From an uncultured Actinomycetes bacterium (GTDB lineage: Bacteria > Actinomycetota > Actinomycetes > Nanopelagicales > Nanopelagicaceae), in contig CAIMNT010000096.1 of the NCBI GenBank assembly GCA_903842855.1, positions 1-37,355 of the forward strand: 37,355 nt of DNA. Reading direction: 5' to 3'. Below, piece after piece: positions 5,434 to 37,355 of this stretch (position 1 is its first letter; each line of letters begins with the position of its first letter). Made by a program: the position numbers and the translations under genes. A model generated the notes under the pieces. It did not search any database. It saw only the letters and a program-made list of their open reading frames with translations, and was not told the DNA's origin.

Positions 5434-6350
5434 GGCGTAACGGAGTAGTTGTGCGAGTTCCCGGAAAGGTGAACTTGCAACTCTCGGTTGGCCCGCTTGA
5501 ACCAGATGGCTATCACGAAGTCACAACCGTTTTTCAAGCAATCGCAATTTACGATGATGTCTCAGTGAGATTTGCAGAGCCAGGTTCTGGAATCACTTTG
5601 ACGATCAGTGGCCCAACTGCAGCTGGCGTCCCTATAGATTCAACAAACTTGGCTTATCGCGCTGCTCAACTCATGATTGATCTGCACGACCTTGATTCCG
5701 ATATCTCGATTCATATCAAGAAAGAGATTCCTGTCGCGGGTGGAATGGCTGGTGGGAGTGCCGATGCGGCAGCGGTGATCGTTGCCTTCGATGCCCTCTT
5801 TGAACTTGGCTTATCGCGCGATGGTATGGAGAAGATCGGTGCACAACTAGGTAGCGATGTTCCTTTCGCCATTACAGGCGGCATCGCAATTGGACGTGGC
5901 CACGGGGATCAACTCACCCCCGTTCTGGCTCGGGGAAGTTATAACTGGGTCTTAGCGATGGCGCCTCAAGGGCTATCTACACAGTCGGTTTATAGGGAAT
6001 GCGATCGACTTCGCACCGGGTTAGATATCGCTCGGCCTCAAGTCTCGGATCAGATCTTGCAGGCGCTACGTGCTGGGGATGCCGAGCTTGTGGGTAGGTC
6101 CTTGGCTAACGATCTCCAGTCGGCAGCCTGTTCGCTGCGCCCAGCACTACGCCTAGTCCTCGATGTGGGAATTGATTATGGCGCCCTAGGTGCAGTCGTT
6201 TCGGGTAGCGGCCCCACGGTTGCCTTCTTGGTCGCCGATGAAGAGCGGGCTCTTGATTTAACCGTTGCTCTTAGCGCGAGCGGTGTGGTTGCAGGAGTTA
6301 TTAGAGCCACAGGTCCCACACATGGAGCTCGCGCAATCGAAACTCTCTAG
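5430..6350 (+). CDS. ispE: 4-diphosphocytidyl-2-C-methyl-D-erythritol kinase
   Basis: The GHMP kinase motif PVAGGMAGGSADAAA and the N-terminal PGKVNLQLSVG are present. There is a 4-nt overlap with rsmA. Confidence 0.9.
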   Translation: MRRNGVVVRVPGKVNLQLSVGPLEPDGYHEVTTVFQAIAIYDDVSVRFAEPGSGITLTISGPTAAGVPIDSTNLAYRAAQLMIDLHDLDSDISIHIKKEIPVAGGMAGGSADAAAVIVAFDALFELGLSRDGMEKIGAQLGSDVPFAITGGIAIGRGHGDQLTPVLARGSYNWVLAMAPQGLSTQSVYRECDRLRTGLDIARPQVSDQILQALRAGDAELVGRSLANDLQSAACSLRPALRLVLDVGIDYGALGAVVSGSGPTVAFLVADEERALDLTVALSASGVVAGVIRATGPTHGARAIETL

Positions 6351-6429: not shown

Positions 6430-6504
6430 TCCGCCATTGTGTAGTGGCTAGCACATGGGCCTTTGAAGCCCAGGGTCCAGGATCGATACCTGGTGGCGGA
6501 GCCA
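6430..6504 (+). tRNA. tRNA-Gln (anticodon TTG), CCA encoded
   Basis: Manual cloverleaf: acceptor TCCGCCA/TGGCGGA, D stem GTGT/GCAC, anticodon stem TGGGC/GCCCA with loop CTTTGAA, T stem CCAGG/CCTGG, discriminator G followed by CCA. The U1:A72 first pair is typical of tRNA-Gln. Confidence 0.85.
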
Positions 6505-6538: not shown

Positions 6539-7987
6539 GTGAAGCAGCTCGACCTCGTAATCGTCTTAGCTGCCGGCGAGGGAACTCGTATGAAATCTGC
6601 CCTTCCAAAGGTTCTCCATCAAATAGCTGGTCGCCCAATCGTCGATCACGTTATCAATGCAACAACGCCCTTACATGCCAAAGAGTTACGGGTAGTCGTA
6701 GGAGCCGCACGCGAACTAGTTGAGGAGCACCTCCTTACCCAATTTCCAGGGACGACCATCGTGGTTCAAGAGCAGCGCAATGGCACGGGCCATGCGGTTC
6801 AGGTGGCTCTTGAGGGAGCGCCTCAAATCGGCACAGTTTTGATTTTGGCAGGCGATACTCCTTTGCTCACCTCTGTAACCCTTCAAGAGTTTTTTGACGC
6901 CCACACTGGGCTAGAAGTCGATGCATCAGTACTTAGCGCTTTTGTCCCAGACCCTTTCGGCTATGGACGAATAGTGCGAGCCGAAGATGGATCGCTCGAA
7001 GGAATTGTTGAGGAGCGCGACGCCGATCCACTGCAAAAAGAGATCGATGAGATTAATACAGGTGTCTATCTCTTTGATATTGCCGTACTCCGCTCTGCGC
7101 TCGCTGGACTCAAGAGTGGCAACTCGCAGGGCGAGCTTTACCTCACCGATGTATTGGCGCTTATCAAGGAAGCTGGAAAGAGCGCTCTCGCTATTGCCTC
7201 TAGCGACTATACCGAGACGCTCGGGGCAAATGACCGTAGCCAGTTGGCAGAGTGCGCTGCGATCATGCGCGATCGCATTAATGAGACCCTTATGAAAAAC
7301 GGTGTCAGCATTATCGATCCCACAACCACGTGGATAGATCTGGGGGTTGAAATCGCCCCTGATGTCACCATTCATCCAGGTAGCTCCATTACTGGAAATA
7401 CCAAGATCGAAACAGGGGCCACCATCGGCCCGCGCACGACACTGCAGAATGTTTTTGTAGGGGCTGGAGCGAGTGTCATAGAAAGCCGTGCCACCGATTC
7501 TGCAATTGGAGCTGGGGCGAACGTTGGGCCCTTTAGTTTTATCCGGCCTGGAACTACCTTGGCGGAAGGCAGCAAAGTCGGCGCCTATGTCGAAGTCAAA
7601 AACTCCAGCATTGGAGCCGGCTCCAAAGTGCCTCATCTTTCGTATGTTGGGGATGCCACTATCGGTTCGGGGACCAATATTGGAGCGGCCACCATATTTG
7701 TGAATTACGACGGGGTGGAGAAGCACGAGACCACTATTGGCAATGACGTGCGGATAGGTAGCGACACCATGTTGGTGGCACCGGTAAACATTGGCGATGG
7801 CGCCTATACAGCGGCTGGCTCTGTCATCACCGAGGACGTTCCAGCAGGTTCCATAGGAGTTGCTAGGGCAAAACAGAGAAATGTCTTAGGGTGGGTTCTG
7901 CGTAAGCGGGCGGGCTCGAAGTCGGCCGAATCTGCCAAAAAAGCCGGAGCCACTGATGGCTCTACTAAAGCACAGGGGGAAGCATGA
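6539..7987 (+). CDS. glmU: Bifunctional GlcNAc-1-phosphate uridyltransferase / glucosamine-1-phosphate acetyltransferase
   Basis: [11 protein letters not shown] nucleotidyltransferase motif plus C-terminal left-handed beta-helix hexapeptide repeats. The track start is 6524. I prefer GTG 6539, which is preceded by a GAGGGGGAG Shine-Dalgarno sequence. Confidence 0.92.
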
Positions 7988-11009: not shown

Positions 11010-11600
11010 ATGGATGAATTGCAGAAATTTATACAACGAAATTTCCGTCGGATTTTAGCTGGCGGAGGCCTGGTGCTTTCACTCTTAGCAATATCGCTAT
11101 TGCTAAATACGACTCCTTCAACGTTCGTCTGGATGGCAACGAGCTCAATTCCTGGGGGTAGTCGGATCACTGCAAATAACGTAAAACTTGTGAAGGCAGA
11201 TCTCGCAGAAGACGCCACTCATTTTGAGAGCAAAGGCGATTTGTTGGTAGGTCATTTTGCTACCCGAATGCTGCAGCCCGGTGATTTGATTGCGGTGACT
11301 GATGTGACAAGTGAAAGTGCAAACTCGACCGCAACTTACCTGCCTATAGGTGTCGCCGTCGATGATCTCCCCGCTGATCTAGCGATTGGGGATTTAGTTG
11401 ATATCTATGTAATTCCAAAGGATCAGGGAGTTTTGCCAGCCGTTATCGCGCGTAGGGTCCCGATCCAGAATATCGACGTCAAATCTCGTGCTCTTGGTGG
11501 AAGTGTCGCCGTGAGTGTCACAGCGAGCCCCACAGTCACTTCAATAATTGTTACCGCAGAAGCGCAAGGAAGGCTGGTGTTAGCCCGTGACCCGTTCTGA
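11010..11600 (+). CDS. SAF-domain membrane protein, CpaB/RcpC-like Flp pilus assembly component
   Basis: N-terminal TM helix (GGGLVLSLLAISLLL) followed by a SAF-like beta-rich domain (GSRITANNVKLVKAD...MLQPGDLI). It overlaps the TadZ-like gene by 14 nt. Confidence 0.6.
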   Translation: MDELQKFIQRNFRRILAGGGLVLSLLAISLLLNTTPSTFVWMATSSIPGGSRITANNVKLVKADLAEDATHFESKGDLLVGHFATRMLQPGDLIAVTDVTSESANSTATYLPIGVAVDDLPADLAIGDLVDIYVIPKDQGVLPAVIARRVPIQNIDVKSRALGGSVAVSVTASPTVTSIIVTAEAQGRLVLARDPF

Positions 11601-12690
11601 GATTCCGCAACTTGAAGTAGTCACTGCGATTCCAGATGCAGATCGCGAGGATTTTTTGGCACAACTTCTATTCTCCCAAGGGTGGAACATTATCTTTAGG
11701 GCATTCGATGCCACCTCGCTGATGACATTCATGAATCAACGCGGTTTGCAAATGCGTACCGTCATCATCTACGAGAGTGAACTGCCCGGATTTTCGCCAG
11801 AACTAATTCAGGAACTTGACCACCCTACTATCACAACCATCTCTCTAGATTCGGTTGGATTTACCTCTCACGAAATGATGGTGGCAATCCGCGGAAAGCT
11901 TCGAGCTCCCATGTTGCAGGTTGTATCCCCGAGTGAAGAGTCTGTATCAACAGAAGCGCAGATCGCGGATTTTTCATCTTTTCCGCAAGTTCGGCAGTCA
12001 AGAGCTCTTCCTTTGACTTCAACAAAAAGATTTAATCGCACTTCACGAGTGCAGCCTCGAGATCGTAAAGTAATCGCAGTTACCGGAAGCACAGGCGCAC
12101 CTGGTCGAACAAGATTTGCTACAGCCCTTTCACGAGAGCTGGCGCTCAAGGGAGCAACGCTCTTAATAGATGCGGATATTAGGTCTCAAGGAGTGGCACC
12201 TTTGCGCGAAGAGTTAGAGAAGAGTGCGGTTGAAGTAATCCCTCTCGATCGAGAGAAGCGGCCAACTCATCTTCCCGAAGGCGATGAGACAGCGGTTGTA
12301 GACCTTGGTGTTTTACCTGGATTAGCGGAGGCAACTGCTGACCGACGCTGGCACGGGTCGCTGGTAAACAATGTCTTGGATAAGGCAACACATCTGATTT
12401 ATTTGAGCAAGTCAACCGCTTCGAGCATGGCTGAACTCTCTCAATTTATGCGCGAGTACCCGTTGTTACAAAAGCGCTTACCAATTGTTTTTGTCTGTAT
12501 CTTGACTGGACATTCAAGAGAGTTGCGGGAGTGGGAAGCCAAATTCCTGACTCTGACCACAGGGGAGAGCAGGTACATCTTGCGCGAAAGCCAATTGGCC
12601 CCTTCGCATGAAAGCAAGATATTTGGAGCATTTATGGGCAAAGATCCAAAGAGAAAAGAGATTGCTAAGATTGCCGCTTCACTGGCATAG
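11587..12690 (+). CDS. TadZ/CpaE-like (Ssd-like) ParA/MinD-superfamily protein with a receiver-like N-domain and a degenerate Walker A
   Basis: Architecture: a pseudo-receiver of about 110 aa, a linker, then a ParA-like domain. The P-loop position reads VIAVTGSTGAPGRT (12085..12111), with no GK[ST] lysine. It is paired with a SAF protein, as in actinobacterial tad loci (Rv3660c-type). Confidence 0.6.
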   Translation: MTRSEIPQLEVVTAIPDADREDFLAQLLFSQGWNIIFRAFDATSLMTFMNQRGLQMRTVIIYESELPGFSPELIQELDHPTITTISLDSVGFTSHEMMVAIRGKLRAPMLQVVSPSEESVSTEAQIADFSSFPQVRQSRALPLTSTKRFNRTSRVQPRDRKVIAVTGSTGAPGRTRFATALSRELALKGATLLIDADIRSQGVAPLREELEKSAVEVIPLDREKRPTHLPEGDETAVVDLGVLPGLAEATADRRWHGSLVNNVLDKATHLIYLSKSTASSMAELSQFMREYPLLQKRLPIVFVCILTGHSRELREWEAKFLTLTTGESRYILRESQLAPSHESKIFGAFMGKDPKRKEIAKIAASLA

Positions 12691-27438: not shown

Positions 27439-27550
27439 TCTCTATGCACAGGCCCATGTGTGAGCCTGAACGCGCCTGCGCCTAAGCCAGCAGAATCCCA
27501 ACATTCGGGCGGTCTTCCACTGCCTATAACTATGAAAGGTGAAAATCCAG

Positions 27551-28351
27551 ATGGATGTATTCCAGAAGAAGGCGATCCCTGCCGGGGTCAAAAAGAGTTG
27601 GCGGGCTCAAACAATTGCTATAGCAATGATCGGAGCAATCGCAGTTCCAATGATGGTCCAGAGCGAGGGAGCTTACGCTGCGACCGCTGCTAAGTCGCGG
27701 AGCATCCGACAATCTGCTCCCGTAAAGAAGACGGTCGCTAAGAGAGCGGTCGCTAAGAGAGCGGTTGCGAAGAAGGCACCAGTAAAGAAGGCACCAGTAA
27801 AGAAGGCACCAGTAAAGAAGGCACCAGTAAAGAAGGCTGCTATCAAGAAGTCGCCTCTGAAAAAGAGTTCCGGCACCAGAACTGTGAAGAAGGTTGCAAG
27901 TCGATCCACTGGCGTCAAGAAGAGTGCTAGAGCAAAGTCAACCTCCTCTCTTCATAAGGTTGCCAAGATCGGAGCTCAGAGCGCCGCAGTTGCTGCGGGA
28001 ACTGCAGCAGGTGTGGCCGTCTCTAAGAATCTTTCGCACAAGATAGCGAGTGATAAAGCTACATCTACTGCTGAATCCAAATCCGTTGAAACATCCAAAC
28101 CAACTGAGGCAACAATACCTGCTGAGGCAACAAAGCCTGCTGAGGCAACGAAGCCTGTCAACGCCACTACTAAAGGTGACTCAGCAAAGAGTGCCGAGGC
28201 ACCTGTAGTTTCACAAGAGGTTAAGGCTGCTACTAGCAAAGATGTTGCCAAAAGCGCTCAGAAGGGCGCAAAGGGTAGTAAGGCAAGTAAGGCAAGTGCT
28301 GCCAAACCGATGAAGAAGATGCGGATGCGTCGCTTGCACGTAGAGCCATAA
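27551..28351 (+). CDS. Secreted, highly basic Lys/Ala/Pro/Val-rich repeat protein (histone-H1/AlgP-like low-complexity composition behind a signal peptide)
   Basis: The signal-like N-terminus is MDVFQKKAIPAGVKKSWRAQTIAIAMIGAIAVPMMVQSEGAYA|A. It is followed by AVAKR/APVKK pentapeptide repeats, a Thr/Ser/Ala/Pro-rich segment (PAEATK x3), and the tail KKMRMRRLHVEP. The track start is GTG 27539. ATG 27551 has a better AAAGGTGA ribosome-binding site. Confidence 0.65.
   Translation: MDVFQKKAIPAGVKKSWRAQTIAIAMIGAIAVPMMVQSEGAYAATAAKSRSIRQSAPVKKTVAKRAVAKRAVAKKAPVKKAPVKKAPVKKAPVKKAAIKKSPLKKSSGTRTVKKVASRSTGVKKSARAKSTSSLHKVAKIGAQSAAVAAGTAAGVAVSKNLSHKIASDKATSTAESKSVETSKPTEATIPAEATKPAEATKPVNATTKGDSAKSAEAPVVSQEVKAATSKDVAKSAQKGAKGSKASKASAAKPMKKMRMRRLHVEP
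27731..27850 (+). repeat. In-frame 15-nt tandem repeat (8 units; 4 identical copies of GCACCAGTAAAGAAG at 27776-27835)
   Basis: Read directly from the sequence. It encodes TVAKR-AVAKR-AVAKK-(APVKK)x4-AAIKK. Confidence 0.95.
28103..28156 (+). repeat. In-frame 18-nt tandem repeat (3 units), encoding (T/P)AEAT(I/K)P-type hexapeptides
   Basis: The three units are ACTGAGGCAACAATACCT / GCTGAGGCAACAAAGCCT / GCTGAGGCAACGAAGCCT. Confidence 0.9.
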
Positions 28352-28580
28352 CTTAATCGAGATTGCATTGGGTCAATGTGCAAAAGTTCTCATGATTCGA
28401 ACCAGTAGCGTAAAATTGTTGAATCAATGAGTCAGAGGGCTTACCTGCAAGCCTTCTACTAACAGAAGCATCTTGACCCTTGCAATTTTGGGCACTTTTA
28501 AGGGAAATGGACAGGAAATTAACAGCAACTGAGGCGGAGTCCCCCTTGTGGGGGTTATGGATAGGGAGTAACTTCTTTTC

Positions 28581-28916
28581 ATGGAGATCATCTTTCATAC
28601 ACGTAATGCAGTTTTAGCAGAAGATTTTCGTTCCATCGCTTCAGAGAAGCTTCAATCGTTGCAACGGTTTGGTGTCGTCTTGGATGGGATAAAGGTCGAG
28701 ATAATCCACGAATCAAATCCCCGTTTTGGAAAAACCTCTCATGTCGTAACTCTCTCTTCTCACGGCAGTGGGCCATTTGTTCGCGGAGAGGGCCAAGCAT
28801 TTAATGATCTAGCTGCCTTTGATCAAGCGGTTAAGAGCATTGAATTGCAATTGCGCAAGACGCATGAACGCCTTAAGGATTACGGGCATCAATCGCTGCG
28901 TGAAGCAAAGGGTTAA
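28581..28916 (+). CDS. hpf: Ribosome hibernation/sigma-54 modulation family protein, short (RaiA/YfiA-length) form
   Basis: 111 aa. MEIIFHTRNAVLAEDFRSIASEKLQSLQRF...VEI...FDQAVKSIELQLRK fits the S30AE beta-alpha-beta-beta-beta-alpha pattern. No C-terminal dimerisation domain is encoded downstream in any frame. Confidence 0.7.
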   Translation: MEIIFHTRNAVLAEDFRSIASEKLQSLQRFGVVLDGIKVEIIHESNPRFGKTSHVVTLSSHGSGPFVRGEGQAFNDLAAFDQAVKSIELQLRKTHERLKDYGHQSLREAKG

Positions 28917-29060
28917 AAGCGTCAAAAAGCTCTCTCTATGCTTAATTGGGGAGATTCAATTAATTATTGATTGACCTATATGTGACTTGTAGTGACCTTG
29001 TTGATTCAATGAATGCCTCATGTCACGCAAAGTCATGAACCTTGGTGAGATACTAAATCC

Positions 29061-30272
29061 ATGAAGCCGGTCATCAGCGCCCTCAAGGCGGTACGACGAT
29101 TTTTTCTGCGCAAAAAAGCGGTTTATCTTGCATGGCGGGTTCGGTTCGATCGCGAAACTAGACTTCGCATTCTTTCAAAGAAGCGTGGAGTCAAGAGATT
29201 TTTCGGATCACCTTTCCGTTCCAAACCTAGTTTTCTCATCGGGCCAACTAACTCGGCAAACCAGGCGACCCTGTGGGCGAAGGCGTTAACAAAGGCTGGT
29301 CTTGCCTCCCAATCGCTTCGAATTTCTGGCGAGCTAGCCAAGGAGTGGTTCACAACAGATTTTGCACTCACCCGGGAGCAGTGGAGAGATTTTTCTAGCC
29401 GGCAAGAACTTGCTGATTTGGTTGCTTCCACAAAGGATGTTGTCCTCTTTGAATCGCTCCGGCCAATCTTCCGTCTTCAAAACGCAAAGGATGGCAGGAA
29501 TCTCATTCTTGAAGACTTTGAATTAATGAAGTTGCTTGGCAAGAAGAGTGGCATTGTATTTCATGGCAGCGATATACGTGATACCGAGGCGCATGCGAAA
29601 CGAAACCCCTTTTCGCCTTTCCACAAAGAGAGCCCCGAATTAGAAAAATTACGTGCTCGGACTACTGAGAATGCTGCGCTACTTCCTGAAATTCGGCAGA
29701 GGAAAATCCCAATCTTTGTTACTACAAAAGATTTATTACTCGACCTCCCCGATGCGCACTGGCTCCCAGTCGCAATTGATTTTGATCGTTTCCATAAAGT
29801 TGCTCTGGAGTCCCCAATCTATCCAGAGGTGGATGCTCCGCTACGCGTCCTCTTCCTTCCAAGCCGCTCCTGGCTGAAATCCGCTGATTTAATTGAACCA
29901 GTGCTTTTGAAACTTCGCGATGAGGGGGTAATTAGTTACCACAGTTACCTTGCTGGCGAAGAGAGCCTTACTCATGCTGAAGTTCCGGAAGCGATTGCCA
30001 AAGCGGATCTTGTCATCGATCAATTCTTAGGAGTAATCGGAGTCTTCCCACTCGAAGCGCTGGCGGCTGGTCGTTTGGTGATGAGTTACGTTCCGGAGGA
30101 GGCAGGGGAAGTTCCAATCATCAATATCACTCCAGATACTCTCGAATCGGAGATACGCAGGGTTGCCAGTACAAAACCACATCCGCAAGCCGGTATCGAC
30201 TATGTGCGGGAGTGGCACGATGGGCGTGAAAGTCTTCTAGCTCTTGCGGAGGTCTTTGGCTTCAAGATTTAG
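29061..30272 (+). CDS. Hypothetical protein, possibly a GT-B-like glycosyltransferase with a very basic N-terminus
   Basis: 403 aa. The C-terminal half (LRVLFLPSRS...AIAKADLVIDQFLGVIGVFPLEALAAGRLVMSYV) resembles the second Rossmann domain of GT-B enzymes. The N-terminus is Arg/Lys-rich. The function call is weak. Confidence 0.4.
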   Translation: MKPVISALKAVRRFFLRKKAVYLAWRVRFDRETRLRILSKKRGVKRFFGSPFRSKPSFLIGPTNSANQATLWAKALTKAGLASQSLRISGELAKEWFTTDFALTREQWRDFSSRQELADLVASTKDVVLFESLRPIFRLQNAKDGRNLILEDFELMKLLGKKSGIVFHGSDIRDTEAHAKRNPFSPFHKESPELEKLRARTTENAALLPEIRQRKIPIFVTTKDLLLDLPDAHWLPVAIDFDRFHKVALESPIYPEVDAPLRVLFLPSRSWLKSADLIEPVLLKLRDEGVISYHSYLAGEESLTHAEVPEAIAKADLVIDQFLGVIGVFPLEALAAGRLVMSYVPEEAGEVPIINITPDTLESEIRRVASTKPHPQAGIDYVREWHDGRESLLALAEVFGFKI

Positions 30273-30329
30273 TGGATCCAGCGGCCAACCATTGAATCGG
30301 TAAATGATTAGAACGGTCACTACACCCTG

Positions 30330-30947
30330 TTACGGAAGTGGGCCAATATATTTACGATAGCCCTTCTCCCAATTGGAGAGGAAAATAGCCTGTCCCGCTT
30401 TGAGTGAAAGTCGTCCGGAGCATACGAGCCGGTGGATCTGATTTTCGAGCTGGTCTTTAACATAAGAGCTGTACTTGATGTTGTGGGGTTCCGGAAAGAG
30501 GTTTAACGGACTACTGGGATTTCCACCCACCTCGAGAGGAACTATGTGGTCCTCTTCATAATCTCTCATGTTCAAATCACCATCGAGGTTGTACCCCGAG
30601 TGAAGTTGGTTGTACTTCAACTGATTGGTGTAACTAACGGGTGGTCGAACTGTTGCGGTCCAACCCACAACACAAATATTGGCACGAATATTGGCTTGGG
30701 TAACCGCGGGATTTACCGCACCTGGCGTCAATTTTACATTTGGCAATCCAGAACTTTCGGAATAGGTAGCGGCGCCGCATGCGGATAGACCAAGTGTGGC
30801 TGCCAACATCAGACTCGTTACAACCAGAGCTGAGTTTCGAGAGGTGCGACGTAAAAGTTCGGACTCCCAAAGACTGGTTTCACCTTGGCTGAAAGTAGTT
30901 AATGAGTTGGTTCTAGAAGGCTTTCGCACCTTTGAGGTTAAGGACAT
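30330..30947 (-). CDS. Lipoprotein with a C-terminal His-Me finger (HNH-like) nuclease domain
   Basis: Lipobox LGLSAC (Cys57), preceded by LLRRTSRNSALVV (a possible twin-arginine n-region). The HNH-like core is YEEDHIVPLEVGGNPSSPLNLFPEPH...KDQLENQIHRLVCSG (about 30480-30551). There is a 10-nt overlap with the upstream lipoprotein gene. Confidence 0.6.
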   Translation of the reverse strand: MSLTSKVRKPSRTNSLTTFSQGETSLWESELLRRTSRNSALVVTSLMLAATLGLSACGAATYSESSGLPNVKLTPGAVNPAVTQANIRANICVVGWTATVRPPVSYTNQLKYNQLHSGYNLDGDLNMRDYEEDHIVPLEVGGNPSSPLNLFPEPHNIKYSSYVKDQLENQIHRLVCSGRLSLKAGQAIFLSNWEKGYRKYIGPLP

Positions 30948-31588
30948 TGATAACCGAACTCACTCTCCACATTTGTAGGCACTTTGCCGCATCCCACGAG
31001 AGCCGTTCCGAAATCAACGACGCTCCATTTCTTATTTTCTACTGTAGCGAAACCATAAGCGTTGTCGGTGACAGGTAGATAAGGAACTGTGGTGAAGATA
31101 ATCCACTGTGGATCGATTTTTGAACTGCGAATATCAACGACGGCGGCAAAATATTTATCACCCTGCATCTCTGTTTTAATCACGTTTGCCACGAGATCGG
31201 TGCTGGTGGCTTGTGGCACAAGCGCGCCACCTTTGTAGTGATTGAAATAAGGAAGTGGTGAGTTGGGGTATTGCCCCAGCAGAGTCCAGGGAACAACCAC
31301 CTGTGAAAGTTCTCCTTGAGTGGCATTAGGCCACTGCAGGAGCCAACCCGCTTCGGTATCAACTCCCACTGGAAGTTTGCGCGCGAGTTGCGCCTTTACT
31401 TCATCGTTTTTCCAGGTTGCCATCTTGGGATGATTTGCGTTGAAGGTAGAGACCAAGAGGTTAATCCCTGCAATTAAATTGCTATCGGCTGGTCGCTGGT
31501 CACCCGACTGAACTCCGCAAGCAGATGTGAGAAGAATTGAACTCAAAATCGCACTGAGAGCAACTAGAGCGCGAGTTTTTTTAGCCAC
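30938..31588 (-). CDS. Lipoprotein of unknown function
   Basis: The track ORF extends to 31648, where it would overlap tadA. I prefer GTG 31588, which gives VAKKTRALVALSAILSSILLTSAC (signal plus lipobox). The mature part has no recognisable motifs. Confidence 0.55.
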   Translation of the reverse strand: MAKKTRALVALSAILSSILLTSACGVQSGDQRPADSNLIAGINLLVSTFNANHPKMATWKNDEVKAQLARKLPVGVDTEAGWLLQWPNATQGELSQVVVPWTLLGQYPNSPLPYFNHYKGGALVPQATSTDLVANVIKTEMQGDKYFAAVVDIRSSKIDPQWIIFTTVPYLPVTDNAYGFATVENKKWSVVDFGTALVGCGKVPTNVESEFGYQCP

Positions 31589-31638
31589 TTGAGGATAGTA
31601 ATCCCTGCCCGCCTTTCCACAGGCAAAAGTTATCCCCA

Positions 31639-32712
31639 GTGGGTTCACAGGCTGAGCTGATCGATTCGTGCCTGGAGTTTCATCTGCTTGTGAGCGAAAT
31701 GAAGAATGAATTTGGACCCCTTGCCGCTTTGATGGCAGATCCGACCGTGGAAGAGATCTGGATTAACTCGCCACATCGGATCTTTATCGCTCGTGCAGGG
31801 GTGAGTCAGCTCACCAATCTGGTTTTGCAGCAAGAAGATATTCACGACTTAGTAGAAAGGCTCCTCATGTGGGGCGGAAGGCGACTTGATCTATCGCATC
31901 CTTTCGTGGACGCCCGCTTACCGGACGGAAGCCGGTTGCATGTAGCAATTCCCGATGTCACCGCAGTCAACTGGGCGGTAAATATTCGCAAACACCTGAT
32001 CCGAGGTAAATCGCTAGCCAACCTTTCAGAGCTTGGGGTGATGAGTCCTGAGATAGCCGAATACTTAACAGAGTCGGTCCGCGCGGGACTGAACATTCTG
32101 GTGAGTGGATCAACGCAAGCCGGCAAGACCACGCTTTTAAATGCGCTGGTGAGCGCGGTTCCATTTCATAATCGGGTCATAACCATCGAGGAGGTCTTCG
32201 AGCTCAAGCCACAACTACCTGACTGCGTTGCGCTACAAACTCGCCAGGCGAATCTTCAAGGTGAAGGAGAGATTCCGCTTCGAAAATTGATTAAAGAGGC
32301 GCTGCGGATGCGGCCATCACATCTGGTTGTGGGTGAGATTCGCGAAGCTGAAGCGCTAGATCTGCTTATTGCGCTTAACTCGGGTTTACCAGGAATGGCG
32401 ACGATTCACGCAAATTCTGCGCGGGATGCGATTGCCAAATTGCAGACACTTCCGTTACTTGCCGGAGAAAATATCTCCTATCAATTTGTAGCTCCAATTG
32501 TTGCAGCCACCATTGACCTGATTGTTCACTCTACGATCTTGCGCGAAACAGGTGAGAGGCGAATCGTTGAGATCGCCCATGTCACTGGTCGAATCGAGAA
32601 CGATCGCGCCGAGATTGAACCTCTATTTACTTATCGTGACGGTAAATACGAAATGGGTCTCGGTGATCCATATCGAGTATTTGACTCCGGCGGATCGCAG
32701 CGGTCAGCATGA
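31639..32712 (+). CDS. tadA: Tad/Flp pilus assembly secretion ATPase TadA/CpaF
   Basis: Walker A GSTQAGKTTLLNAL, Walker B HLVVGEIR, His box TIHANSA, and N-terminal PTVEEIWIN. The start is uncertain (GTG 31639 or ATG 31699). Confidence 0.9.
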   Translation: MGSQAELIDSCLEFHLLVSEMKNEFGPLAALMADPTVEEIWINSPHRIFIARAGVSQLTNLVLQQEDIHDLVERLLMWGGRRLDLSHPFVDARLPDGSRLHVAIPDVTAVNWAVNIRKHLIRGKSLANLSELGVMSPEIAEYLTESVRAGLNILVSGSTQAGKTTLLNALVSAVPFHNRVITIEEVFELKPQLPDCVALQTRQANLQGEGEIPLRKLIKEALRMRPSHLVVGEIREAEALDLLIALNSGLPGMATIHANSARDAIAKLQTLPLLAGENISYQFVAPIVAATIDLIVHSTILRETGERRIVEIAHVTGRIENDRAEIEPLFTYRDGKYEMGLGDPYRVFDSGGSQRSA

Positions 32713-33443
32713 TGGCCAGAAAAGGAAAACCAAAAAGTATCCATGTGTTTTCTGCGGGAGCCCTCGGTTTCCTCGTTGCGCATGCCCTGATTGGAACCAA
32801 TCTACTTGCCATCCCAGCTGCTGGATTGGGGGCTCTCATCCCGTCAATTCTGATGAAGCGAAAAATGCAACGCCGACAAGAAGCTCTTGCCGGGCTCTGG
32901 CCAGAGATCCTCGATCACATGATCTCAGGTCTACGTTCGGGACTCTCTATTGCCGAAACTATCTCTGGTTTATCTACGCGTGGACCTGAAATTTCCAGGC
33001 CGATCTTTGGAGAGTGCAAAAAGATGCTGCTCTCAGGTGTCGAGATCTCGAAAATATTTGTATTTATCAAAAGAGAATTTAGTGATCCAGTGGCCGATCA
33101 AGTCTGTGAGGTGCTGGATTTTGCGCGAGGGACAGGGAGCCGCGATACCGCAATAACGCTAAGGAAGTTGGGGGACTTTATCCGGAGCGATATTGCGGTT
33201 CGTGGTGAGATTTACGCAAAGTTGGGTTGGATCAAGAATTCTGCAGTAGTAGCAGCTGCCGCTCCTTGGATTCTTCTCGTCATACTTTCAACGCAACCGA
33301 CTACCTTGCAGGCCTTCTCCACTTTAAGCGGCCATCTCATTCTGCTCTTTGGCGTTCTGCTAAGCCTTCTGGCTTATCTCTGGATGTCACGTGTGGGGCG
33401 AGTACAAGAAGTTCCGAGAATATTTAGCGGTGAGCTCGCATGA
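32709..33443 (+). CDS. tadB: Tad pilus platform protein TadB (T2SS-F-like)
   Basis: Polytopic membrane protein with a cytoplasmic helical domain (WPEILDHMISGLRSGLSIAETI). ATGA overlap with tadA. Confidence 0.75.
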   Translation: MMARKGKPKSIHVFSAGALGFLVAHALIGTNLLAIPAAGLGALIPSILMKRKMQRRQEALAGLWPEILDHMISGLRSGLSIAETISGLSTRGPEISRPIFGECKKMLLSGVEISKIFVFIKREFSDPVADQVCEVLDFARGTGSRDTAITLRKLGDFIRSDIAVRGEIYAKLGWIKNSAVVAAAAPWILLVILSTQPTTLQAFSTLSGHLILLFGVLLSLLAYLWMSRVGRVQEVPRIFSGELA

Positions 33444-34027
33444 GATTTCTTATTGCCCTAATGGCCGTTGCTCCGATACTAGGTGTGGCACTTTCTGTCT
33501 TGTGGTCCGAATTCCGCAGCGAACTAATTACGGGCTATAACAGCGCAACTTATAAGGTCGAGAGTAAGAAATCTCGCAAGAAAATCGAATCCGAATTTCC
33601 ACTTGTGGTTGAGTTGTTCGCTATTTTATTGGCCGGCAATCAGAGCCCTGCGACCGCTCTTGATCACATTAGTCGTCGCGCAGAGGGAGAGTTTGCTCTC
33701 TTGCTCCGAGAGTGCGTTTCAGAAATTCACTCTGGTGCAAATTTCTCGCAAGCGCTTGACCTGCTAAATACTCGAATCCAATCTCCCATGGTTCGTCGAT
33801 TCTGCGATTCCTTGATGATCGCTATAGAGCGCGGATCGCCACTTGTCGACGTAGTAAATAGACAGGTCGAGGAAGTTCGCAGTGAAGAGCGATCCCGACT
33901 CCTCGTCACGGCTGGCAAGGCTGAGATCGCGCTCATGATCCCTGTTGTCTTCCTCATCCTTCCTGTCTCAGTTCTCTTCGCACTCTGGCCGTCTTACTTC
34001 GCTCTTGGCCACAGCGTTGGATTCTGA
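33440..34027 (+). CDS. tadC: Tad pilus platform protein TadC (T2SS-F-like)
   Basis: N-terminal TM segment, a helical domain (FPLVVELFAILLAGNQSPATAL...) and two C-terminal TM segments. ATGA overlap with tadB. Confidence 0.75.
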   Translation: MRFLIALMAVAPILGVALSVLWSEFRSELITGYNSATYKVESKKSRKKIESEFPLVVELFAILLAGNQSPATALDHISRRAEGEFALLLRECVSEIHSGANFSQALDLLNTRIQSPMVRRFCDSLMIAIERGSPLVDVVNRQVEEVRSEERSRLLVTAGKAEIALMIPVVFLILPVSVLFALWPSYFALGHSVGF

Positions 34028-34194
34028 GCACTACTGAACAAGCACTACTGAACAAGCACTACTGAACAAGCACTACTGAACAAGCACTACTGAACAAGCA
34101 CTACTCAACAAGCACTACTCAACAAGCACTACTCAACAAGCACTACTCAACAAGCACTACTCAACAAGCACTACTCAACAAGCACTACTGAATA
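34028..34194. repeat. Perfect 14-bp tandem repeat array: 5 x GCACTACTGAACAA, 6 x GCACTACTCAACAA, then one truncated G-type unit
   Basis: Counted directly. Unit boundaries fall at 34028, 34042, 34056, 34070, 34084 (G-type); 34098, 34112, 34126, 34140, 34154, 34168 (C-type); and 34182-34194 (GCACTACTGAATA). The array begins at the first base after the tadC TGA and ends 35 nt before the flp ATG. Confidence 0.97.
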
Positions 34195-34229
34195 CCGCCT
34201 CTATCGACAGCTTTCGGCAAGGAGAGAAA

Positions 34230-34454
34230 ATGATGAATATGGGAAGTCGCCTAATAAATGAACTCAGAGAGAAAGTACTGAAAAGTTCAGTGCAAGTTTT
34301 CCGAGCGCTGAGTGAGGAGCGAGGCGATGTGCCGGGCTGGGTCTTGGTGGTTCTAATGACCACCGGCCTTGTGACAGGAATCTGGACATTAGCCGCGCCA
34401 CGTATTGATGCGATTCTGCGTAATTCACTCGACTCGATGAGTGGCATTCGGTGA
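34230..34454 (+). CDS. flp: Flp-type pilin-like small protein (actinobacterial DUF4244-like), non-canonical processing motif
   Basis: 74 aa. AAGGAGAG lies 4 nt upstream. Basic leader, then EERG|DVPGWVLVVLMTTGLVTGIW (hydrophobic helix). Its position between tadC and the tadE-like genes matches Rv3656c-type pilins. Confidence 0.6.
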   Translation: MMNMGSRLINELREKVLKSSVQVFRALSEERGDVPGWVLVVLMTTGLVTGIWTLAAPRIDAILRNSLDSMSGIR

Positions 34455-34831
34455 GCCCTGCGAAATTCAGGTTTCGCGCCTACCTGAAGAGAAATTTGGG
34501 ACGAGTGATCTCCGTGATAGGAGAGGAGCGTGGAAATGTGGAGAGCGCTTTGACTCTAATTCCCTTGATGCTGCTCTTTCTGAGCGTGCTACAGGTGTGT
34601 ATCTCGGTGTACAGCAGAGACACTTATAGCCAAATTACACAAGGCGCAGTTGCCTTTGCGGCAATGGGCGATGGAGTATCTCAACCATGGAGCTCAAATC
34701 CGATTGCACTTCCTTTGCCTGGCGGAGGATCGGTATTGGTTGGAGAGCGCAAAGAGAAAGTTCCGGCCATTACTCCGCTATTGCCTGTAGGGGATTTATT
34801 TTACACAACGGGAGTAGCGGTTCAAGAGTGA
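34451..34831 (+). CDS. TadE-like pseudopilin
   Basis: GEERGNVESALTLIPLMLLFLSVL is a TadE-type N-terminus. GTGA overlap with the flp stop. Confidence 0.65.
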   Translation: MSPAKFRFRAYLKRNLGRVISVIGEERGNVESALTLIPLMLLFLSVLQVCISVYSRDTYSQITQGAVAFAAMGDGVSQPWSSNPIALPLPGGGSVLVGERKEKVPAITPLLPVGDLFYTTGVAVQE

Positions 34832-34872
34832 GATTGTGCCGAAGTTCAAAATCTCCCCTCACTCGAGGTCGG

Positions 34873-35325
34873 ATGGGTCATCTCCGCAATAGCTTAATTA
34901 GTGATCAAGAAGGAAGCGCCGTGATTGAATTTGTGGTCTTGGCACTCCCACTACTTTTACCCCTCACCGTTTATCTCAATGAAGTCCACCAAAATTCCAT
35001 TATTAACTCCGACCTCCATAATTTAGCTCGTCAAAGTGCCCGTGCATTTGTCACAAGTGGCGATGAAAGTTTTGAAGCAGCTCGTATGCAGACGTTACTC
35101 AATCTCTTTGAAAGTAAAATCCTGAAACCGGCAGGTATTACAGAGACCCCTGTACTCAATATTGAATGTTCTGCCGTTCCGTGTTTAACGCCGGATGCTC
35201 AAGTTAAGGTAACTGCAACCATTACCCACCTTCATAAAAATTTCTCGGGAATCTTCAGATTCATCTTCGCACCATCCCTAGAGTTTTCGGCGAGCGACAC
35301 TCAAATCGTGGACGCCTGGAGATGA
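34873..35325 (+). CDS. TadE-like pseudopilin (second copy)
   Basis: DQEGSAVIEFVVLALPLLLPL is a canonical TadE N-terminal motif. The track ORF (34687) is over-extended into the previous gene. The start is either ATG 34873 or GTG 34828 (a GTGA overlap). Confidence 0.65.
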   Translation: MGHLRNSLISDQEGSAVIEFVVLALPLLLPLTVYLNEVHQNSIINSDLHNLARQSARAFVTSGDESFEAARMQTLLNLFESKILKPAGITETPVLNIECSAVPCLTPDAQVKVTATITHLHKNFSGIFRFIFAPSLEFSASDTQIVDAWR

Positions 35326-35816
35326 TTCGATCGCAGGTGAGGCAATTGCTGCGTGACGAGACGGGCAGCCTTTCGATACTTGTCTTCGCTCTGTTTTTCG
35401 TTCTATTGATATCTTCACTCGGAGTCGTTGATATCTCCGATAATTTCCTCGCCAAACGTCAACTCATTGAAATAGGCGAGGTAGCCATATCTCAGGCTGC
35501 GCACCAAATCTCACTCTCACGCTACTACTCCGGAAATGTCTTAATGGATACATCTGGCGCAGATGGAGCTCAATTTAGAATTCCATTGGATTGCACTAAG
35601 TCCTTCGCAATATTTTCAGAAAAGATCTCTATTTCGCAGTTGAGGGGCGAACGGATAACGATCGACGATTGGAGCTGCGCTAACGATGAGGTGAATGCAA
35701 CTATCTCAGCCCGAATTCCGATTTTATTGAAATTACCGTTAGGCATTGGAACCGATGGAACAACCATCTCTTCTACCGTGGCCGCTACCTCGATTATTGG
35801 TGGGGTGCGACCCTGA
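35322..35816 (+). CDS. Rv3654c-type TadE/TadG-like pilus-associated protein
   Basis: N-terminal RDETGSLSILVFALFFVLLISSLGVV. ATGA overlap with the preceding gene. It is the last gene of the tad operon. Confidence 0.55.
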   Translation: MIRSQVRQLLRDETGSLSILVFALFFVLLISSLGVVDISDNFLAKRQLIEIGEVAISQAAHQISLSRYYSGNVLMDTSGADGAQFRIPLDCTKSFAIFSEKISISQLRGERITIDDWSCANDEVNATISARIPILLKLPLGIGTDGTTISSTVAATSIIGGVRP

Positions 35817-35861
35817 AATGTGCTTCAAATACCGCCCCAGAAAAACCATTACTCTTTGCCT

Positions 35862-36977
35862 ATGGCCGCGCGCGAGTACTTACAAGAGGTAAAGGCCCTG
35901 GACTCCACCTTGGTGAGTATTGAAAAGGTCCTTGATCTGCCTAAATTGCAGGCCGATGCCCTCTCTTTAGAGGCAGAGGCTAGCGCCCCGGATCTATGGA
36001 ATGACCCCGAGAAAGCGCAGGTAGTCACGAGCAAACTATCTCGAGTGCAATCAACCCTCAATCGAATTACGACAATTCGGCGTCGTTTAGAGGATGTTCC
36101 TCTTCTACTTGAACTCGCCGAAGAGGATAAAGATCAGAAAGCGTTGGCCGATGCGGGCCAAGAGCTCGACGATGTTACCCGCGCAATCGGTGAGCTTGAA
36201 GTACAGACTCTCCTGAGTGGGCAATACGATGAACGAGATGCCCTGATGACAATTCGCTCCGAGGCTGGAGGAGTGGAAGCCGCCGATTGGGCAGAGATGC
36301 TCAGTCGAATGTACTTCCGTTATTGCGAGCGAAACTCTTACAAGGTCGATGTACTTGAGACCTCGTATGCAGAAGAGGCCGGCATCAAATCCACCACCTT
36401 TAGAATCAGCGCTCCCTATGCATATGGCAAACTCTCGGTTGAGCAGGGCACCCATCGACTTGTTCGAATATCTCCCTTTGACTCCCAAAGTCGGCGCCAC
36501 ACCTCATTTGCTGGAGTAGAAGTCGTGCCTGTGGTTGAGCAATCCGATCACATCGATATTGATGAGAAAGAGATCAGAGTTGATGTATATCGCTCCTCTG
36601 GCCCTGGCGGGCAAGGAGTGAACACCACTGACTCCGCTGTTCGAATCACACACATTCCAACTGGAATTGTGGTCTCTTGCCAAAACGAGCGCTCCCAAAT
36701 CCAAAATAACGCGACCGCTATGGCTGTTCTGCAATCCAAGCTCTTAGAGCGACGTCGCCAAGAAGAGCGCGCCAGGATCGATGCTCTCAAAGGGGACAAC
36801 TCCGGATCATGGGGCAATCAGATGCGCTCGTATGTACTTGCTCCGTACCAGATGGTCAAAGACCTTCGCACAGATTACGAAGTGGGCAATCCAGCGGCAG
36901 TTTTGGACGGGGACCTCGAGGGATTTATTGAAGCCGGGATCCGCTGGAGAATGAGCGGTAATAAAGAGCAAGGCTAG
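35862..36977 (+). CDS. prfB: Peptide chain release factor 2 (single ORF, no programmed frameshift)
   Basis: The SPF tripeptide (RISPFDSQ) and the GGQ motif (SGPGGQGVN) are present. The track start is GTG 35820. ATG 35862 ([10 protein letters not shown]) fits the family N-terminus. Confidence 0.93.
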
Positions 36978-37168
36978 GGGGATCATGCTGGAGGCCATGA
37001 GGCTGGAAGCGATGGGGTTTTTTACTAATGAACCTCGCATCTTCCGAATTGCCCCCTTTATGTACTTTTTCACAGGCATTTGAAGCCCAATCTCCCCGAC
37101 TTCATTGCGCTCGCAAACTAAACTGTTGGAGTAACTTTGCCCCGTCGCCCACCCTCCAGGAGTCTTTA

Positions 37169-37355
37169 GTGATCAAATTTGAGAATGTCACCAAGATTTA
37201 TCCTAAACAGGAGCGAGCGGCGCTTGATCGAGTCGATTTAGAAATCACGAAGGGGGAGTTTGTCTTCCTCGTAGGGCTCTCCGGCTCGGGTAAGTCGACC
37301 TTCCTACGCTTAGTGCTTCGGGAGGAGCAGCCAACCAGCGGCAGCATCATCGTCG
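37169..37355 (+). CDS. ftsE: Cell-division ABC transporter ATP-binding protein FtsE (5' part; runs off the window)
   Basis: Not in the ORF track. Manual translation from GTG 37169 gives VIKFENVTKIYPKQERAALDRVDLEITKGEFVFLVGLSGSGKSTFLRLVLREEQPTSGSIIV (Walker A GLSGSGKST). The prfB-ftsE order is conserved. Confidence 0.85.
   Translation, partial: MIKFENVTKIYPKQERAALDRVDLEITKGEFVFLVGLSGSGKSTFLRLVLREEQPTSGSIIV

Follow-up and report, generated by a model that had tools for sequence, protein, structure and literature searches.

In an uncultured actinomycete of the family Nanopelagicaceae, a Tad-type pilus operon and a pair of overlapping lipoprotein genes are transcribed away from each other, and the second gene of the pair, lipoB, encodes a domain that resembles HNH nucleases. 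The arrangement is found on contig CAIMNT010000096.1 (assembly GCA_903842855.1), positions 1 to 37,355 of which are referred to here as the window, and it raises the question of whether the nuclease-like protein and the pilus work together. An earlier note on this DNA had suggested that they do, with a surface-tethered nuclease processing extracellular DNA retrieved by the pilus. Judged by gene content and gene order across related loci, the comparative evidence argues against lipoB as part of a Tad-pilus uptake machine. On balance, we lean towards a reading in which lipoA and lipoB make up a self-contained surface-protein operon beside a strain-variable Tad cassette, with lipoB likely to degrade extracellular nucleic acid.

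Linkage of the lipoprotein pair and the Tad operon in relatives

Both lipoprotein genes lie on the minus strand. The first, lipoA (30938-31588), encodes a predicted, lineage-restricted lipoprotein of 216 amino acids, and the second, lipoB (30330-30947), a predicted lipoprotein of 205 amino acids with an HNH/His-Me finger-like domain. The ATG codon of lipoB and the 3' end of lipoA share 10 nucleotides (ATGTCCTTAA), an overlap that fits translational coupling. The Tad-type operon occupies 31639-35816 on the plus strand. Matches to T2SSE and T2SSF, the open reading frames themselves and the invariant lipobox cysteines bear out both the operon and the co-oriented, overlapping lipoprotein genes as the earlier note had described them. 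The first possible start codon of tadA is a GTG at 31639, but comparison with a related locus, L017, and with the lengths of homologues makes an ATG at 31699 the probable start; the divergent spacer is thus between 50 and 110 bp long. Here and below, L-numbers are labels of related loci that were compared with the window.

In close relatives, the whole block consisting of prfB, tad, lipoA, lipoB, hpf and a polysaccharide cluster keeps its gene order, so that finding the tad and lipoprotein genes side by side in these genomes says no more than the background gene order does. For a family-wide test, 80 genome loci were found by a peptide pattern that excludes the DHIVPL orthologues, and 76 of them, from other taxa, have neither lipoA nor any tadA within 8 kb. 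A second set, anchored on lipoA, combined 80 metagenome loci with the loci collected earlier and the window, to give 94 loci that form 40 clusters at 90% lipoA identity. Seventy-six of the 94 could be classified, the other 18 being on contigs that are too short.

In 61 of the classified loci (26 clusters), tadA is adjacent to lipoA and lipoB is downstream. The tadA gene is also adjacent in three loci that have no lipoB (1 cluster), and in one locus with a convergent HNH-like paralogue (1 cluster). In other cases prfB is directly adjacent and tad is absent, as evidenced by three loci with lipoB downstream (1 cluster), one with a convergent, secreted HNH-like paralogue that includes DUF3761 (1 cluster), and two with no lipoB (2 clusters). 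A different gene is found upstream in the remaining loci, two of which have lipoB (L007 and L013; 2 clusters) and three of which do not (2 clusters). All four combinations of presence and absence of tad and lipoB occur. For instance, the lipoA-lipoB pair is present without tad in L007, L013, L142, L143 and L154, and tad is present without lipoB in L167-L169.

A single cluster at 90% identity mixes tad-plus strains (L147, L148 and L150) with tad-minus strains (L142, L143 and L154), and in the tad-less members prfB lies directly beside lipoA. In the case of L143, approximately 95 bp (5895-5989) take the place of the 4.2-kb tad operon of L148 (1778-5995), with flanks that are 97% identical on the prfB side and 91% identical on the lipoA side. 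The same clean difference distinguishes L154 from L150, with lipoA-lipoB in place. Among strains that are at least 90% identical, the tad operon is thus either present as a whole or cleanly missing. The presence of tad and of lipoB varies independently and, taken together, the lipoprotein and tad operons behave as separate units. The claim that nuclease and pilus form one functional module is not supported, in view of the pairs without tad, the tad operons without lipoB, the 4.2-kb cassette difference and the 76 unlinked loci, and the conserved linkage to tad on which the earlier note had made its proposal depend is largely missing from relatives.

The divergent intergenic region (31589-31698) holds a conserved DnaA-box-like element, GGGGATAAC-N-CTGTGGAAA, at ~31604-31640 on the plus strand, as seen in an alignment of the window with L001, L003 and L004. 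Its form is GGGGATAAC-N(5-7)-CTGTGGA(A/T)A, with two DnaA-box-like TGTGGA/TTATCC motifs. The element is present in every tad-bearing locus inspected, including L001 (~7190-7225), L003 (~7285-7315), L148 (~5825-5855), L017 (~85-135) and L085, and is not found in the tad-less loci L143, L086, L087, L007 and L013. It travels with the tad cassette and not with lipoA, and is probably a promoter or operator of tadA. The proximal sequence upstream of lipoA is kept in tad-plus and tad-less strains alike. A scan of the divergent spacer for sigma-70 promoters returned no consensus site.

The HNH-like domain of lipoB and its predicted export

The lipobox of lipoB reads ...LAATLGLSAC57, with L54, A56 and C57 invariant in 21 orthologues, leaving a mature domain of residues ~58-205; the lipoprotein calls for lipoA and lipoB were both made by the lipobox pattern [LVI][ASTVI][GAS]C alone. 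In the outgroup orthologues of lipoB (L007 and L013), the signal peptide is of the ordinary kind and the lipobox Cys is absent; tethering of lipoB is thus a local feature that is not conserved. For the wider family, signal peptides or lipoboxes, together with fusions to DUF3761, DUF2510 and He_PIG (immunoglobulin-like), which are domains of surface or secreted proteins, place the proteins outside the cytoplasm. The lipoB orthologues also possess an unusually long n-region of ~40 amino acids ahead of the hydrophobic core (30785-30947 of the window, residues 1-55), with a conserved SLWE-x-x-L-x-(R/K)(R/K)-x-S-(R/K) motif. Tat export was considered and judged unlikely, as the twin arginine is not kept among orthologues.

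An exhaustive profile search with the mature domain recovered 7,263 clusters at 50% identity with an expectation value (E) of <=1e-3, and 4,061 clusters at E <=1e-10. The family is found in Nanopelagicaceae, Acidimicrobiales, Micrococcales (Leifsonia, Arthrobacter and Sinomonas), Burkholderia, Halothiobacillus, Acidocella and Chloroflexota, and on plasmids, where nearly all of the 60 records are annotated as 'hypothetical' and two as 'HNH endonuclease'. Ten relatives that were looked up by cluster name are all 'hypothetical protein', and a tblastn search of phage genomes gave no match. Clustering of the neighbours of the 80 family loci yielded no recurrent partner gene, the second-largest cluster being antisense open reading frames of the gene itself and the rest reflecting gene order common to close relatives.

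Conservation was assessed in the window protein and 150 representatives of the 50%-identity clusters (n=151). Three residues, D133, N149 and E168, are invariant (151/151 each), and H134, K164, D165, C92 and C176 are each present in 150 of the 151 sequences. Thus, the DH...N...H core proposed in the earlier note holds for its first three residues, including the putative catalytic His and Asn, but not for the last, as H172 is present in only 92 sequences and the canonical last His of the motif is not conserved; N169 is found in 117. The conserved helix residues D165 and E168 could, by analogy, serve as metal-binding residues, and the conserved cysteines C92 and C176 suggest a disulfide.

An AlphaFold model built with 21 close orthologues alone was unusable (predicted local distance difference test, pLDDT, of 51), whereas a rerun with a diverse alignment of 55 sequences gave a pLDDT of 93.1 and a beta-beta-alpha core. 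In mature numbering, the core consists of a strand (73-77) that ends in D-H, a second strand (93-97) and a helix (104-119). When this model was compared by Foldseek with predicted viral structures, the matches included a member of the family at E 4.6e-15, as well as a pair of proteins annotated 'HNHc domain' at E 7e-8 and 1.5e-7; the weaker matches were mostly HNH endonucleases and EssD-like nucleases. A two-domain relative, P0283, has 41% identity to the window domain in an alignment of 128 amino acids (E 2e-29). It scores 32.5 bits with the Pfam HNH model PF01844, above the cut-off of 21.4, and among PHROGs it is matched by nine families of HNH endonucleases and one of endonuclease VII. Of the 55 relatives, 7 weakly match Endonuclea_NS_2 and 7 HNH_5, and the NCBIfam matches of the 55 were signal-peptide noise only.

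Compared with the HNH superfamily (PF01844/SMART HNHc, of the His-Me finger clan), lipoB shares the predicted beta-beta-alpha core, the (nearly) invariant D-H that closes strand 1 and Asn that follows strand 2, the relative that passes PF01844, and the similarity of its model to HNHc phage proteins at E ~1e-7. It differs in that an invariant K-D-x-x-E on the helix replaces the final His/Asn of the motif, and in that the family has a conserved N-terminal extension of ~70 residues (LP..TPG..N..VTQ..I..TIC..GWT..RPP..YT..LK) and a conserved Cys pair. It is also predicted to be extracytoplasmic, and not an intracellular, phage or restriction enzyme. Together with the evidence for export, these features lead us to regard lipoB as an exported HNH/His-Me finger domain with high confidence, and as a metal-dependent nuclease with moderate confidence.

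Additional family members are present in several related loci. In L087 (4520-5185, minus strand) and L144 (4080-4511, minus strand), lipoB is replaced by a convergent, secreted HNH-like paralogue that is not a lipoprotein and is fused to DUF3761, a fusion also seen in 4 of 10 long relatives examined. The Nanopelagicaceae-type genomes L005, L006 and L061 each carry a second HNH-like copy that is 67-69% identical and, being located away from lipoA and tad, is likely a paralogue; the copy in L005 has an ordinary signal peptide.

The partner gene, lipoA, is restricted to this lineage as far as its sequence homologues indicate. From the GTG start at 31588 its product has the length of most homologues, of which a single-sequence search found 182 and a profile search 268. 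None of these carries a Pfam domain, and the few that are named are Actinomycetes metagenome-assembled genomes (MAGs). The lipoA protein itself matched nothing in Pfam, NCBIfam, PHROGs or PDB. Its lipobox reads ...ILLTSAC24, with C24 invariant in 17 sequences, as are C200 and C215 near the C-terminus, and the mature protein has a calculated isoelectric point (pI) of 5.3.

Possible roles of the lipoprotein pair

If the pair is indeed a self-contained surface operon, lipoB would be exported and lipid-anchored through Cys57, displaying a disulfide-stabilised HNH/His-Me finger domain of ~148 residues on the outer face of the membrane. From the fold and the conserved residues we infer nuclease activity, metal ligands and the disulfide, and with them a substrate and a physiological role. 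By analogy with beta-beta-alpha-metal nucleases, the general base would be H134, a divalent metal would be bound by D133 along with the helix residues D165 and/or E168, and N149 would brace the hairpin. The substrate would be extracellular DNA or RNA, cut non-specifically, and the most likely purpose would be scavenging of nucleotides, phosphorus or nitrogen, or clearance of foreign nucleic acid. The mildly acidic, lineage-specific lipoA would be co-expressed with lipoB as a partner lipoprotein, and may function as an accessory factor or modulator. The Tad operon would be a cassette that varies between strains and is inserted on the prfB side of lipoA, next to prfB, and its adjacency to the lipoprotein genes would reflect an inherited gene order and not a shared mechanism.

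Such a degradative role has parallels in Vvn/EndoI and Dns of Vibrio, which are small, disulfide-containing, exported and non-specific nucleases. Their breakdown of DNA outside the cell provides nutrients or keeps foreign DNA out. This is the role judged most likely for lipoB, but the Vibrio enzymes are soluble proteins of the Endonuclease_1 family to which lipoB has no sequence match, whereas lipoB is predicted to be lipid-anchored in Nanopelagicaceae.

Several points weigh against this interpretation. The window lipoB matches no curated HNH model, or anything else, in Pfam, NCBIfam, PHROGs or PDB sequences, and placement of the 205-amino-acid protein among the HNH/His-Me finger families, which the earlier note had proposed to check by a profile search, finds support in the relative P0283 and in the predicted viral HNHc structures but in no curated match of the protein itself. 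Searches of PDB sequences with the single sequence and with profiles A1, A2 and A4 found nothing meaningful, the sole match being a spurious one to a glutathione S-transferase (E 1.9). No Foldseek match to PDB structures was significant (E >=0.9), with Cas9 and the DNases of pyocin AP41 and colicin E9 at the top. The assignment of metal ligands rests on analogy, the literature yielded nothing on DUF3761 function, exported actinobacterial HNH lipoproteins or any characterised member of the family, and scavenging is only one of several roles that a surface nuclease could play. In addition, most sampled lineages (26 of 36 state-by-cluster records that are informative) have tad and lipoB adjacent and divergent with a short spacer, and co-regulation of lipoAB and tad may therefore exist in those strains. 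Finally, lipoB is absent from 5 of 11 tad-less loci as opposed to 3 of 65 tad-bearing loci, which could hint at a link, although these are raw counts that are not phylogenetically independent, several of the loci behind them coming from one or two clades.

The last two points bear on the proposal that the Tad pilus captures DNA, that the tethered HNH nuclease nicks or degrades one strand, and that ComEA/ComEC then takes over for transformation or for nucleotides, an arrangement that we regard as improbable. The precedents are EndA of Streptococcus pneumoniae (Endonuclease_NS) and NucA of Bacillus subtilis (DNase_NucA_NucB), membrane-anchored competence nucleases of monoderms that belong to the beta-beta-alpha-metal type. 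The predicted lipoB protein would resemble them in being membrane-anchored, extracytoplasmic, of the same metal-dependent type and in a monoderm host. Unlike these enzymes, however, neither lipoB (at E <=10) nor its 55 relatives (at E <=1) match PF01223 or PF14040, lipoB does not have the DRGH motif of EndA, and no genetic or comparative link of lipoB to competence genes was found here.

The proposal is also favoured by the divergent arrangement across a 50-110 bp spacer, by the 61 of 76 informative loci in which tad and lipoB are adjacent, and by the requirement for tad genes in natural transformation of Micrococcus luteus, which the earlier note had correctly cited as background (PMC4322843). 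The M. luteus tad-1 cluster, consisting of tadA-tadB-tadC and pseudopilins, and the window operon, which reads tadA-tadB-tadC-(small pilin-like)-tadE/F-tadG, are alike in order, in the lack of tadV within the cluster, and in residing in an actinobacterial monoderm. They differ in that the window operon is strain-variable and known from genes alone, and no nuclease is mentioned among the M. luteus transformation loci (PMC4322843). In agreement with the earlier note, neither comEA nor comEC was found among the window proteins, but a ComEF operon is reported to be near-ubiquitous in Nanopelagicales (PMC12817590), and the want of comEC that the note had listed as fatal to its idea thus does not hold at the level of the lineage.

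Against these observations stand the persistence of lipoA-lipoB without tad and of tad without lipoB, the cassette difference between strains at least 90% identical, the 76 family loci with no tad linkage, the anchor that is not kept in outgroup orthologues, and the intergenic element that accompanies tad and not lipoA. Uptake through the pilus is retained as a minority explanation on account of the usual divergent arrangement, the M. luteus data, ComEF, and the raw counts of lipoB and tad.

A bolder version would have lipoB, in tad-carrying Nanopelagicaceae, as the missing nuclease of Tad-dependent uptake, processing DNA for ComEC while lipoA presents the DNA or regulates the process, and would have the family of more than 7,000 clusters as a major, unrecognised group of environmental extracellular nucleases; we consider this unlikely. 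To our knowledge, no nuclease is known for actinobacterial transformation, and a role for lipoB in Tad uptake would be of interest for that reason.

It is similarly unlikely that the genes encode a toxin or defence pair, with lipoB attacking the nucleic acid of competitors or phage at the surface and lipoA serving as a co-exported inhibitor or escort. The structural neighbours of lipoB include pyocin AP41, colicin E9 and EssD-like nucleases, and the family weakly resembles these DNases and EssD/EsaD (Endonuclea_NS_2) in structure or sequence, but at non-significant levels. The acidic lipoA is tightly coupled to lipoB, family members are found on plasmids, and lipoA in L087 and L144 is beside a different, secreted family member. 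Unlike the colicin, pyocin and EssD toxins, however, lipoB has no domain for delivery, translocation or receptor binding and no cytoplasmic immunity gene, and lipoA, being exported, differs from the known immunity proteins of nucleases, which are found in the cytoplasm. In other taxa, the family is represented mostly by stand-alone genes with no recurrent partner, and lipoA is found without lipoB in at least 8 loci.

Least probable is a non-nuclease function, whereby the HNH-like domain acts on another phosphodiester (for instance, wall teichoic-acid-like polymers from the neighbouring polysaccharide export cluster) or only binds. In its favour, a cluster of ABC-2 exporter, glycosyltransferase and aminosugar genes lies a few kb from the pair in conserved order, the helix has K-D-x-x-E in place of the canonical final His/Asn, and the window protein matches no curated nuclease model. 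Against it, a beta-beta-alpha frame with invariant D-H and N is a nuclease signature, relatives pass Pfam HNH, and the family is widespread in taxa that do not have that polysaccharide cluster.

The acI bacteria (Nanopelagicaceae) are the most abundant freshwater bacterioplankton and have streamlined genomes. A surface nuclease, if this is what lipoB encodes, would bear on how they obtain phosphorus, nitrogen or nucleotides from dissolved DNA. The novelty is modest, in that an uncurated, very large family lies inside a well-known superfamily; even so, an exported HNH-like family of 7,263 clusters in Actinomycetota, Proteobacteria, Chloroflexota and plasmids that has no Pfam or NCBIfam model would be worth curating and testing.

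The Tad operon and the remainder of the window

The first gene of the operon (31639-32712, plus strand, as are all that follow) encodes a TadA/CpaF-like secretion ATPase that matches Pfam T2SSE at E 8.4e-38; its best NCBIfam match is to TIGR03819 (TadA family ATPase), at 252 bits under a cut-off of 373. It overlaps by 4 nucleotides with the gene for a TadB-like platform protein (32709-33443; T2SSF, E 2.6e-8), which is followed by that for a TadC-like platform protein (33440-34027; T2SSF, E 1.6e-17). Two genes have weak Pfam matches to TadE or Tad, namely the TadE-like pseudopilin (34451-34831; TadE, E 0.0019) and the TadG-like protein (35322-35816; Tad, PF13400, E 0.011; 59-71% identity in L001-L004), both under the gathering score. 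The 74-amino-acid 'flp' product (34230-34454), a small hydrophobic pilin-like protein with 63-68% identity in L001-L004, has no match in Pfam, NCBIfam or PHROGs, and does not have the Flp motif G/XXXXEY, reading ERG/DVPGW with no Glu at +5.

Among the pilin candidates, a processing-type motif (G/SAVIEF) is present only in the second TadE/F-like pseudopilin (34828-35325; Pfam TadE, E 1.6). Its start is most likely the GTG at 34828, which overlaps the upstream stop codon as GTGA, and its homologues are 146-158 amino acids long. Neither a TadV prepilin peptidase, as the earlier note had observed, nor TadZ/CpaE is encoded in the operon or elsewhere in the window. In actinobacteria, tadV is typically unlinked from the tad cluster, and the M. 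luteus tad-1 cluster is likewise without a canonical flp (PMC4322843). CpaF/TadBCG genes have been described within a variable genomic island of Planktophila (PMC12817590), in keeping with the strain differences seen here. For the window operon, a tRNA-flanked island was ruled out, the nearest tRNAs being at 6430 and 14758.

Some 19 kb from tadA (11010-12690, plus strand), a SAF-domain protein is weakly CpaB-like (E 2.5e-4), and an adjacent protein of 367 amino acids weakly resembles the actinobacterial CpaE-like Ssd (E 1e-4), with both matches far under cut-off. On these similarities, the two genes could represent detached Tad accessory genes.

The gap between tadC and the pilin gene is filled in the window by a tandem repeat of a 14-bp unit in 11.6 copies (34027-34189; TRF score 291, 99% matches). 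Unrelated perfect repeats with units of 15-18 bp are found in or beside the tadC-to-pilin region in four of five related tad loci examined: within the gap in L003 (4464-4551) and L004 (4371-4487), at its tadC end in L085 (3539-3610), and just 3' of the pilin-like gene in L001 (3661-3730). In L002, a 15-bp repeat is instead located in the gap ahead of the next gene. Copy number differs between the near-identical contigs L003 and L004 (4.9 versus 6.5). The tadC-to-pilin repeats may represent a spacer that evolves rapidly, a contingency feature or a region that is prone to assembly errors. Comparable repeats occur in many other intergenic spacers of these loci.

The whole window, with a G+C content of ~0.50, is a housekeeping region that includes metG, ksgA, ispE, glmU, prs, L25, pth, hpf and prfB, the last of these following the TadG-like gene. 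Close homologues of lipoA and lipoB come from freshwater metagenomes, with those that are named being Candidatus Nanopelagicaceae or Actinomycetes MAGs. A scan of 28000-37355 against Rfam gave no matches, and there is thus no riboswitch (for instance, for cyclic di-GMP) upstream of either operon.

Two further genes lie on the plus strand on the hpf side of the pair. The first (27539-28351) encodes a repetitive, Lys/Ala-rich protein of 270 amino acids that weakly matches the Rv3852 family and histone H1-like proteins, and contains in-frame tandem repeats of 15 and 18 bp at 27732-27837 and 28104-28157. The second (29061-30272), between hpf and lipoB, encodes a protein of 403 amino acids that has no match in Pfam, NCBIfam or PHROGs; it is absent from L001 and L002, and is present in L003, L004 and L085 at 48-68% identity.

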